Sequence record: PQ671645.1
Strand: one strand, 5' to 3'
Length of the DNA stretch: 64,000 nucleotides
From: Escherichia phage DCP548
The notes below the pieces were generated by a model. The model did no database searches, was not told where the DNA came from, and saw nothing but the letters and a program-made list of their open reading frames with translations. The position numbers and the translations under genes are program-made. Below are positions 47,900-49,508 of this stretch, piece after piece. The first letter of the stretch is position 1. Every line of letters starts with the position of its first letter.

Positions 47900-47943
47900 G
47901 TTGCTTTTCCTAAGTTAATTAACTTATCTATTTATTATTATGC

Positions 47944-47972
47944 AAAAAAAGCCCCAACCTTTCGGAAGGGGC
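47944..47972 (-). terminator. Rho-independent terminator (GCCCC/GGGGC stem plus U-run)
   Basis: Third copy of the hairpin family; closes the structured RNA region at 47973-48284. Confidence 0.6.
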
Positions 47973-48284
47973 TATGCCTTGCGGCAACCTTGTCGGGGTT
48001 CCACCTGCTAAGGCAAGTGTTTGTACGAAACGCCGGGATTCGAACCCGGTTATTAAGCAGTTGACGCTACTCAATATTTTTAAAAGGCCATATCTCGACC
48101 ATATCCGAACGTTCCGTCAAAAACGCTACTCGGCTTACGGCAAAGATATTTCCTCGAATCGATAATTCTGTGCGCCGTTTCTGCTGTGATGTAAGGGGAT
48201 ATTAACAAATCGTAAAGATTTATTAAGACCAGTCCTTACGCAGGGAACATCAGTCCGACGACTTACCGGTAGCGACCCGGCTTC

Positions 48285-48677
48285 TTATTTTGGCATATCA
48301 TCAATTTGCTCTCGACGCCGACGCCATAGATTAATCGCTTCATAAACACATTCTGCGTTTGGTATATGACGGCAATAATATAATGATTCGCGTTTCTGGA
48401 ACCGATGTTGTAATGGAATTTCGTTTAAAAGGTCTTTACGATCAAAGTATTCAAAACTAGTTAACCCAGAACGATTTTTAAGGAACTTCCAATGGCCAAA
48501 TTCATTTTGGAAATAAACGTAATCAGCGTGTTGATATAACGAATTAATCAACCGGTCGGAAATAACTGTATCCTGTTCATTAAAATAAAACGTTAAATCA
48601 TGAACTACCAGATAAATATTACCTTTCATATTTTCCTCACTTAAAGTTGGTCGAGACAGAAGGATTCTAACCTTCAC
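48285..48677 (-). CDS. Hypothetical protein
   Basis: 130 aa; the likely true start is the internal Met (MKGNIYLVV...). Confidence 0.35.
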   Translation of the reverse strand: MKVRILLSRPTLSEENMKGNIYLVVHDLTFYFNEQDTVISDRLINSLYQHADYVYFQNEFGHWKFLKNRSGLTSFEYFDRKDLLNEIPLQHRFQKRESLYYCRHIPNAECVYEAINLWRRRREQIDDMPK

Positions 48678-48708
48678 CTTTAACCTTAGAATGATTATAT
48701 GCTATCCA

Positions 48709-49377
48709 TTACACTATAGAAGCAATTAAATTGTTTACTTTATCATCTTTATAAACTTCAGAATAGTGGAGTTCATAAATTTCCCAGCCCAGGGATTTTA
48801 TAATATCATGTCTTTCCTGATAATATGGGGCCAGAATTTTCTTGTTATGATCGGAGTAATGTTGGTTACCGTTAACTTCAATAATTATTTTCTTATCCAT
48901 CAAAGCAATGTCACAGGAATATGCTCTATTTTTAACAGGTTGATATTCCTCAACAAATTGTATATTTGCTTCTATTAATTTATTTTTCAAAAATTCGCAC
49001 GGAACAGATTTGAATTTTGAATTCTTTTTCCAAGGGTGTTTATCTGGATTTTCCTTTAACCAGGTCTTCCGGGCTGCTGATATCTTTTGTTTGGATTCAG
49101 ACGAATGCTTTCGTCCTGTGCCTGCAGCAGACAATTTTTCTCTTGTTTCTTCAGAAACAACTAAAGAAATGCCCTTCTTTTTGGCAACCATGAATTGATT
49201 TAAATTACCAGATTCTTTGCGTGCTTTATTCATAGCAGCGACTGCATTTTTAGAACCCTCTTTATAAGAGGCGAGTTTTGGATTTTCAGAACACCATCTG
49301 GTATGACTTGCCATCCATCCCTTTGGTTTATCAGAAATATCAAATTCTTTATTGCAGTGTTTGCAGATGCTCATCAA
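48709..49377 (-). CDS. Putative free-standing homing-type endonuclease (zinc finger, NUMOD3-like repeats, Vsr/DUF559-like PD-(D/E)xK domain)
   Basis: N-terminal CKHC...HTRWC; repeats SEETREKLSAAGTGRK and SESKQKISAARK; C-terminal IIIEVNGNQHY. Confidence 0.45.
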   Translation of the reverse strand: MMSICKHCNKEFDISDKPKGWMASHTRWCSENPKLASYKEGSKNAVAAMNKARKESGNLNQFMVAKKKGISLVVSEETREKLSAAGTGRKHSSESKQKISAARKTWLKENPDKHPWKKNSKFKSVPCEFLKNKLIEANIQFVEEYQPVKNRAYSCDIALMDKKIIIEVNGNQHYSDHNKKILAPYYQERHDIIKSLGWEIYELHYSEVYKDDKVNNLIASIV

Positions 49378-49433
49378 AATACTCCTATTATATTATAAGA
49401 GTATTTATAATTGAATAGAGCACCGTTCTAAGT

Positions 49434-49508
49434 TGGTGACCCTGGCTGGTTTCGATCCAGCTACCTATCAGTTATGAGCTGACAGCTCTCCCATTGAGCT
49501 ACAGGGCC
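49434..49508 (-). tRNA. tRNA with anticodon CAU (Met, or Ile if lysidine-modified), CCA encoded
   Basis: Hand-folded cloverleaf: acceptor GGCCCTG/CAGGGTC, D-stem GCTC/GAGC, anticodon stem GTCAG/CTGAT with loop CTCATAA, T-stem GCTGG/CCAGC, 3' ACCA. T-loop ATCGAAA is atypical. Confidence 0.7.

Follow-up and report, generated by a model that had tools for sequence, protein, structure and literature searches.

We describe a gene in a 64,000-nucleotide (nt) stretch of DNA from Escherichia phage DCP548 (PQ671645.1), here called the window, that probably encodes a free-standing homing endonuclease of the EDxHD/Vsr type. The open reading frame (ORF), on the minus strand, appears to be part of a mobile cassette, about 750 bp long, that lies between a tRNA(CAU) gene and a tRNA-Arg(UCU) sequence. 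The host backbone is that of a Mosigvirus (RB69-like). A preliminary description, made from the letters of the DNA, had proposed a free-standing homing endonuclease, and that reading is supported, as far as computation allows, by the domains, the fold, and the sporadic presence of the gene. The EDxHD (Vsr-like) homing endonuclease family, with I-Bth0305I, was set out by Dassa 2009 (PMC2677866) and Taylor 2011 (PMC3239194), and the T-even phage enzyme Hef is counted in it (PMC3239194).

The Probable Endonuclease Protein

The ORF finder begins the frame at a TTG. The second codon is an ATG (49374), with GGAG 6 nt before it. The ATG is the likely start, as the GGAG spacing is usual and the resulting product of 221 residues has the length of the closest homologues. 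A protein search gave 285 relatives at E up to 0.001, and 40 of these were aligned for the conservation, profile, and structure model used below.

The N terminus holds a zinc finger in which C28 is invariant and C4, C7, and H24 are at least 90% conserved. In the AlphaFold model (mean predicted local distance difference test (pLDDT) 88), the finger is a beta hairpin and a helix with pLDDT above 90, and longer homologues have a second copy. Two NUMOD3 repeats follow (Pfam PF07460; two stretches, E 7.4e-6, 26.2 bits versus a cut-off of 20.4). The C-terminal part matches DUF559 (PF04480) over residues 151–213, at 21.7 bits versus a threshold of 20.6. Over about the same residues, it matches RAP (PF08373; 25.8 versus 24.2 bits), a family defined on eukaryotic organellar RNA-binding proteins. 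RAP and DUF559 share the Vsr-like fold, and the phage context with DNA-binding modules is unlike the RAP family description. The Cys/His finger, the two NUMOD3-like repeats, and the C-terminal Vsr/DUF559-like nuclease of the preliminary description are thus all recovered, the last two by searches with hidden Markov models above the gathering thresholds, and the nuclease by its fold as well. The domain order had been called unusual, which it is not: N-terminal NUMOD modules and a C-terminal nuclease are the norm for the EDxHD family, an order “reversed” relative to that of I-TevI and I-HmuI (PMC3239194).

The motif IEVNGNQH occupies residues 165–172, of which E166, N168, G169, and Q171 are invariant. 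It is part of an invariant or nearly invariant C-terminal block, PCE127...R150...D155-I...E166-V-N168-G-x-Q-H172-Y...R188-H, in which D155 is likewise invariant and E127 and H172 are at least 90% conserved; D190, further on, is conserved in about 75%. Given this conservation, the Asn in IEVNGNQH reads as the family state and not as a lesion. Residues E25/D51/H64/H69/D97 of Vsr have been equated with E170/D196/N208/H213/D222 of I-Bth0305I (PMC3239194). A weak hhalign alignment with E. coli Vsr (E 0.054) places D155 on D51, N168 on H64, H172 near H69, and D190 on D97. In the register given by this alignment and the published correspondences, E127-D155-N168-H172-D190 would occupy the five “EDxHD” positions at similar spacing, and I-Bth0305I likewise has Asn at “x”.

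Assignment to the EDxHD/Vsr-like class is suggested by fold and architecture and not demonstrably by sequence. That is, the protein has a Vsr-type PD-(D/E)xK domain at its C terminus and a NUMOD-type DNA-binding region before it. Established members show no significant sequence similarity to it: Protein Data Bank chains, including 3r3p, gave no relevant match at E up to 10 with either the single sequence or the 40-sequence profile. The link to I-Bth0305I, DUF559, and Vsr is seen by fold comparison only; the closest structure is a proven DNA homing endonuclease, and RAP-domain mitoribosome and FASTK proteins are also among the best matches. The protein differs from I-Bth0305I in its front end, i.e., a C2HC zinc finger and NUMOD3 repeats rather than NUMOD2/helix-turn-helix repeats. 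Its gene is free-standing beside tRNA genes and lies neither inside a recA intron nor amid split-intein halves. Conservation of the last Asp is, moreover, not strict. With DUF559 and E. coli Vsr, the protein has in common the fold and the core motif (D...E-x-[DN]-G-x-x-H), whereas its DNA-binding modules and phage mobile context are additions, and the Vsr zinc site is absent.

NCBIfam gave no usable match for the protein, and the best PHROG families are of function not known. The ratio of nonsynonymous to synonymous divergence (dN/dS) between alleles is 0.05–0.09, i.e., the gene is under purifying selection. Among 1.84 billion cluster representatives, the family profile recovered 501 when E was limited to 1e-30, and no more than 2114 when the limit was relaxed to 0.001. 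The family is thus a discrete subfamily rather than generic DUF559.

Sporadic Occurrence at a Fixed Site

The flanks of the gene match 848 phage records, the best being Mosigviruses at 95–96% identity, but only 9 of the 848 cover at least 80% of the 2.4-kb query. With Jiaodavirus-type flanks, that coverage is reached in 5 of 175 records. The protein is found by tblastn in 36 records. Matches in T4-like phages of E. coli, Klebsiella, Enterobacter, Providencia, and Acinetobacter show 54–81% identity, and those in Rhizobium and other phages about 30%. In all cultured relatives examined, the gene is inside the tRNA cluster. Empty sites are seen in the endonuclease-less Mosigviruses Shf125875 and ATK47, where tRNA-Met, 3–6 nt, and tRNA-Arg(UCU) follow one another; tRNA-Met directly before tRNA-Arg is the state in most close relatives. 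The order is Met-Asn-Arg in PhAPEC2 and Met-Asn-[ORF]-Arg in AV111. Thus, the gene is sporadic, occurring at a fixed site in a small minority of otherwise near-identical phages, as a homing gene does.

Synonymous divergence (dS) between the window allele and those of AV111 and PSD2001 is 0.9–2.0, far above the 4–12% divergence of the flanking backbone DNA. The endonuclease alleles are therefore much older than the phage backbones in which they reside.

The assignment has a practical use, as public phage records leave the gene unannotated or misname it: among GenBank OR352941, OK254198, MN864145, PP658200, PP889504, and PQ885451, the ORF is unannotated in several and is called “HNH endonuclease” in the last two. 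In a T4-like metagenome contig (L014, 1002–1655), tRNA-Thr/tRNA-Gly and the homologue are closely preceded by a second NUMOD3-containing ORF, 217 aa long; this tRNA cluster may thus hold a further endonuclease.

A Hybrid tRNA-Arg at the End of the Cassette

The last 15 nt of the ORF (GCT TCT ATA GTG TAA) are nt 1–15 of a tRNA-Arg(UCU)-like sequence that joins two alleles, one of the cassette and one of the resident Mosigvirus. The crossover between them lies within 48674–48678, and the segment 48560–48676 is 100% identical to endonuclease-less phages. At the left boundary, the backbone sequence stops right behind the CCA of tRNA-Met. With these two boundaries, about 750 bp would have replaced the 5′ two-thirds of the resident tRNA-Arg, which is the trace expected of a gene-conversion tract ending inside the tRNA.

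ARAGORN calls no tRNA-Arg at the hybrid. Rfam RF00005 scores 37.6 bits there, over model positions 6–65 only, versus 53.5–71.1 bits over the full length for intact alleles. The two strands of the acceptor stem are from different alleles, and two of its seven pairs remain. The minimum-free-energy fold has no cloverleaf, whereas both parental alleles fold as one. Because so few acceptor pairs are left, the hybrid is a recombination scar and probably a dead gene; the sole tRNA-Arg gene detected in the window is, then, most likely dead. An intact equivalent tRNA with the 15-nt ORF overlap is called by ARAGORN in AV111, F2, PSD2001, three metagenome contigs, and Klebsiella phage LilPanda.

The hybrid junction is found in no record of the phage collection. 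It is, however, found in Logan contig L010, where the protein is 98% and the ORF DNA 98.6% identical to those of the window. An assembly artifact was rejected as the source of the hybrid, since this contig is independent and carries the same junction with 1.4% nucleotide divergence in the ORF. The junction thus belongs to a real lineage.

Allele Replacement and Linkage to tRNA-Arg

Endonuclease-less Mosigviruses, Jiaodaviruses (Boboto, KP185), and Gapriverviruses (CJ20, P896) have a resident-type tRNA-Arg (...AGCTCA-ATTGT/GCTGG-ATAGAGCA-ACGG-CTTCTAA...). In endonuclease-carrying relatives in these three genera, the resident type is gone and a T4-type allele (...TAGTGTAATGGATAGCA...) is fused to the ORF. 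In LilPanda, the segment Arg-Leu-spacer is swapped whole for Leu′-ORF-Arg′. Its tRNA-Leu beside the endonuclease (L008, 900–1210) differs from the endonuclease-less Jiaodavirus allele (L094, 415–730), so that the co-converted tract would reach beyond tRNA-Arg. Replacement of the allele in three genera points to the resident tRNA-Arg as the candidate target and to the linked allele as resistant.

A set of 72 viral-contig loci (relatives of 30–59% identity) was pooled with other loci. Clustering at 90% identity left 67 loci whose ORF has 150 aa or more. A tRNA is within 150 nt in 52 of the 67, and 32 have an adjacent tRNA-Arg, 28 of these UCU. Of 68 adjacent tRNAs, 34 are Arg; among the tRNAs of these loci that are not adjacent, the figure is 22 of 209 (odds ratio 8.5, Fisher p 5e-11; the loci are phylogenetically non-independent). 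Proximity to tRNA-Arg is thus seen for relatives in many phage lineages. The adjacent tRNA-Arg genes are mostly co-oriented with the endonuclease ORF.

Two geometries of the linkage are seen repeatedly. In one, a tRNA-Arg(UCU) lies 39–71 nt upstream on the same strand; in the other, the end of the ORF overlaps, or stops just short of, the 5′ end of a tRNA-Arg. The TAA at tRNA nt 13–15 serves as the stop codon in the loci with a 15-nt overlap (E. coli and Klebsiella phages, L019, L046). A Rhizobium phage homologue, which its record calls a homing endonuclease, has a tRNA-Arg(UCU) 18 nt upstream. Some distant relatives (L015, 1875–2685; L079, 2117–2203) have a 38-nt overlap of the ORF with a downstream tRNA-Arg(CCU), and in L015 a tRNA-Arg(UCU) is also present 52 nt upstream, i.e., the gene is bracketed by two tRNA-Arg genes. 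Sorting all adjacent tRNA-Arg genes into resident and T4-type D-arms was tried; it works in the three enterobacterial phage genera, and the distant metagenomic tRNAs are too diverse for it. For the hybrid scar, the allele replacement, and the family-wide tRNA-Arg linkage, no prior description was found in the open-access literature.

The Leader of the Endonuclease Gene

Upstream of the ATG is a T4-type late promoter box, TATAAATA. The case for a late promoter is made by the conserved position of the box and not by its frequency. Its distance from the ATG stays within 31–41 nt across phages of five host genera; the copies in E. coli, Klebsiella, Providencia, and Acinetobacter phages and in metagenome contig L014 are in this range. 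Late promoters that give late transcripts without an inhibitory 5′ arm are known for I-TevI, I-TevII, I-TevIII, segB, and Aeh1 mobE (PMC2988022), and the segB leader design is also described in PMC2330249. The leader of the window gene folds into a hairpin (minimum free energy −11.1 kcal/mol, z −4.3) that includes the Shine-Dalgarno sequence. Equivalent hairpins are found in single-sequence folds of eight other leaders, T4 segB among them. Three of six consensus pairs show compensatory changes. The RNAalifold consensus is weak, as MAFFT misaligned the short loops, and the single-sequence folds are clearer.

Directly against the promoter box is a stretch that resembles the reverse complement of nt 14–39 (D-loop to anticodon loop) of the resident tRNA-Arg. 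The leader, TTAGAA---CGGTGCTCTATTCAATT, and the reverse-complemented tRNA, TTAGAAGTCCGTTGCTCTATACAATT, agree at 21 of 23 positions with one 3-nt gap (p about 0.002 versus shuffles). When 322 tRNA sequences were compared on both strands (644 comparisons), the top three matches of the window leader were resident-type tRNA-Arg(UCU). This specificity is seen for the window, L010, and PSD2001 versions of the leader only; shorter versions match any canonical D-arm. The core GTGCTCTATCC is kept in the E. coli and Klebsiella phage copies, and the element is not found in the otherwise similar T4 segB leader. We suggest that it may be an operator or an autoregulatory mimic of the target. I-TevI represses itself from an operator that resembles its homing site and overlaps a late promoter (PMC2988022). 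The window gene is alike in having a look-alike of its presumed target, the D-arm/anticodon loop of tRNA-Arg, against a late promoter box; it differs in that the resemblance is inverted and only partly specific for tRNA-Arg, and the element is a putative operator.

Comparison with T4 segB

T4 fills the corresponding slot with segB, which has tRNA-Ile(CAU) on one side and tRNA-Arg, then rnaD/rnaC, on the other. The likeness to homing endonucleases in T4-type tRNA clusters, which the preliminary description had drawn, is borne out by this equivalent slot. Like SegB, the window protein lies between tRNA(CAU) and tRNA-Arg(UCU), has 221 residues, and is encoded by an ORF whose end touches tRNA-Arg. 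The leaders are also similar (ATAAATACTCTTA...AATAGGAGAT), with a hairpin that hides the ribosome-binding site, and the T4 segB leader (...TATTTTGAGAACATAAATACTCTTAGAAATAGGAGATATTTATG) resembles that of the PSD2001 Vsr-like gene, which is behind the same tRNA. The Vsr-like gene adds the tRNA-Arg-like element and a perfect TATAAATA box. The proteins, in contrast, differ. SegB has an N-terminal GIY-YIG nuclease, a domain order opposite to that of the window protein. Homology to SegB was rejected despite the equal slot and length, with a BLASTP E of 6.3 against T4 SegB and no Pfam GIY-YIG match. Either gene, it seems, can fill the slot. Side by side, T4 (L092, 1619–1660) and L005 (1140–1200) have leaders that are alike (late-box-like ATAAATA, hairpin, GGAGAT) ahead of unrelated proteins.

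Free-standing endonuclease genes have reportedly been swapped for unrelated ones, segH for mobC and hef for mobE, in work attributed to Sandegren et al. in 2005. As in those swaps, two unrelated endonuclease genes alternate in one intergenic slot of T4-related phages; here, by contrast, the slot is in a tRNA cluster and the alternatives are segB and the Vsr-like gene.

SegB recognizes a T-loop motif of tRNA genes, which it cuts at the 3′ end, and the tRNA region of T2 is replaced when SegB homes (PMC2330249). The resident-type tRNA-Arg of endonuclease-less Mosigviruses and Gapriverviruses has the T-loop GGTTAGAATCC (L002, 2347–2423; L096, 642–718; window 48648–48676). This T-loop has A in place of the usual C56 and departs from the SegB core GGTTCRANTCC; it could be an escape from SegB-like enzymes. 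It has also been proposed that tRNA-Arg maturation cuts the segB mRNA at its stop codon (PMC2330249). By the same reasoning, RNase P processing of an intact linked tRNA would take off the last four codons and the stop of the Vsr-like ORF, and the broken tRNA of the window should escape that cut.

The Locus and Its Neighbors

Features of the locus are collected in Table 1. ARAGORN finds one tRNA in the whole window, a tRNA-Met(CAU) 59 nt upstream of the endonuclease ATG and identical to the copies in endonuclease-less relatives. Its T4 counterpart is tRNA-Ile(CAU), and it may be an AUA-reading tRNA-Ile2. On the 3′ side of the ORF, the order is the degenerate tRNA-Arg, a 114-aa ORF, and the rnaD/rnaC homologues. 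The preliminary description, which named no strand, had put the gene between the tRNA gene and a structured RNA region. The tRNA gene is indeed immediately upstream; the structured RNA is separated from the gene by the tRNA-Arg remnant and the 114-aa ORF. In the rnaD/rnaC homologues (species 2 and 1 RNAs), most columns are invariant versus T4, and Rfam gave no family match for them. A GC hairpin with a T run, terminator-like, follows at about 47935–47975.

Table 1. Features at and around the endonuclease gene, numbered in the 64,000-nt window.
Feature	Position	Strand	Basis or remark
Endonuclease ORF	48709–49377	minus	ORF finder; 222 aa counted from TTG
Endonuclease ORF from the likely ATG start, 221 aa	48709–49374	minus	
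Zinc finger C-x2-C-x16-H-x3-C, residues 4–28	49291–49365	minus	conservation and structure model
Two NUMOD3 repeats (SEETREKLSAAGTGR / SSESKQKISAARKTW), residues about 74–106	49057–49155	minus	Pfam PF07460
Vsr/DUF559-like PD-(D/E)xK nuclease domain, residues about 118–221	48712–49023	minus	candidate active site E127, D155, (E166), N168, H172, D190
Hybrid tRNA-Arg(UCU), probable pseudogene	48648–48723	minus	nt 1–45 cassette (T4-type) allele; nt 51 on resident Mosigvirus allele
T4-type late promoter box TATAAATA	49402–49409	minus	35 nt upstream of ATG
Leader hairpin; 3′ arm with Shine-Dalgarno GGAG (49382–49385), 5′ arm starting inside the promoter box	49377–49406	minus	
Leader element like the reverse complement of resident tRNA-Arg nt 14–39	49409–49431	minus	abuts the late promoter box
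tRNA with CAU anticodon (called Met), upstream slot boundary, resident Mosigvirus backbone	49434–49508	minus	ARAGORN; Rfam 59.4 bits
114-aa ORF (RB69ORF150c-like), backbone context	48285–48629	minus	
Homologues of T4 rnaD and rnaC (small stable RNAs)	about 48023–48288	minus	alignment with T4 and ATK47; ATK47 annotation rnaC

Alternative Explanations

Among the other explanations, the one we take most seriously, unlikely as it is, holds that the protein, though active as a nuclease or DNA binder, has ceased to home and has been domesticated for phage–phage exclusion or regulation of the tRNA cluster. Strong purifying selection on alleles so old would fit domestication, as would the target-like sequence beside the gene's own promoter and the persistence of the broken-tRNA lineage in two samples. 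Against it, ongoing homing classically leaves the traces seen here, i.e., a patchy distribution with precise presence and absence, tRNA alleles replaced in three genera, and a crossover scar; marker exclusion and homing are, moreover, two read-outs of one cleavage. A slimmer chance is given to an RNA-acting, RAP-like protein of Vsr fold that binds or processes the precursor transcript of the tRNA cluster, e.g., around tRNA-Arg. It would explain the tight, mostly same-strand linkage to tRNA-Arg genes, and it is favored by the RAP score, by the mitoribosome and FASTK proteins among the best structural matches, and by the 15 nt common to the ORF and the tRNA, with the frame conserved and the adjacent tRNA-Arg mostly co-oriented. 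However, the great majority of phages with the same tRNA cluster are without the gene, as would be expected of a selfish element and not of a factor for processing. Homing endonucleases use NUMOD3 repeats and zinc fingers to bind DNA, the acidic and His catalytic positions of the DNA nucleases Vsr and I-Bth0305I appear to be retained, and the nearest structure is a proven DNA homing endonuclease.

It is less probable still that the gene is an inactive relic, decaying at the end of a homing cycle. The N in EVNGNQH does replace the D of the typical DUF559 “E-x-D-G”, and the adjoining tRNA is already degenerate; N168, however, is invariant in the family and matches Asn208 of active I-Bth0305I, and the ORF is full-length, with the low dN/dS given above and a 98%-identical copy elsewhere. 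As for an HNH endonuclease, the name given to homologues in two GenBank records (PP889504, PQ885451), there is next to no chance of it. A weak PHROG match to an HNH-labelled family agrees with that name, but no HNH family is among the Pfam matches at E up to 10 and the protein has no H-N-H motif. The HNH identity is refuted by the PD-(D/E)xK/Vsr-like fold.

Some points weigh against a homing endonuclease as well. We know of no member of the subfamily with demonstrated cleavage, target site, or homing. Sequence searches give no link to I-Bth0305I, for which the fold and the weak Vsr profile alignment stand in, and D190 is kept in only about three-quarters of the family. The hybrid tRNA could have arisen with no cleavage, through ordinary recombination of two phages. 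The loci counted for the tRNA-Arg association are phylogenetically non-independent, and the tRNA-Arg sequences beside distant relatives are so diverse that a single conserved target is not readable from them. Finally, the TATAAATA box by itself is not over-represented in the window, where 7 copies are found and 8 are expected by chance.

Proposed Mechanism

For the free-standing EDxHD/Vsr-type homing endonuclease, which remains the preferred reading, we suggest the following cycle, in which cleavage and its target site are inferred. The mobile unit would be a cassette of about 750 bp made up of the leader, the ORF, and the 5′ part of the linked tRNA-Arg. Read-through transcripts of the tRNA cluster would fold the hairpin and hide the ribosome-binding site. 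Late transcripts, beginning just past TATAAATA, would be without the 5′ arm of the hairpin, so that the enzyme would be made late, as are I-TevI and segB. The N-terminal modules would bind an extended DNA site, and the nuclease domain, probably as a dimer like I-Bth0305I, would cut the tRNA-Arg region of a co-infecting phage that is without the gene. The best candidate for the cut site is the segment of the resident-type tRNA-Arg that runs from the D-arm to the anticodon arm. Recombinational repair off the endonuclease-carrying genome would copy the cassette along with the tRNA-Arg allele that belongs to it, whose sequence is different. In the window lineage, the conversion tract would have ended in the variable loop, fusing two tRNA-Arg alleles and leaving the acceptor strands unpaired.

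A broader proposal joins these observations; we advance it tentatively, as a possibility whose chances fall short of even. It is that the window gene belongs to a large, undescribed Vsr-like homing lineage specialized on tRNA-Arg, made up of the roughly 500 cluster representatives with E no higher than 1e-30 and present in T4-like, jumbo, and Rhizobium phages. Its enzymes would cut the resident tRNA-Arg(UCU) of rivals and travel fused to their own resistant allele, with the stop codon on tRNA nt 13–15, and they would be throttled by 5′ processing of the tRNA and by a tRNA-like operator at the late promoter.

Implications

Experimental representatives of the sixth homing-endonuclease family are I-Bth0305I and Hef only. 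The window gene would add a compact, free-standing member with a zinc finger and NUMOD3 front end, in a tractable E. coli phage. The locus is also a natural experiment: one slot can be compared empty, with segB, and with the Vsr-like gene, the type of tRNA-Arg allele goes with the presence or absence of the gene, and the hybrid tRNA marks the end point of a conversion tract. If there is a lineage specialized on tRNA-Arg, it would drive the turnover, and at times the destruction, of phage tRNA genes. Which tRNA genes a phage has is usually discussed via codon usage alone; to judge from the linkage to tRNA-Arg throughout the family, selfish nucleases help to shape this set.

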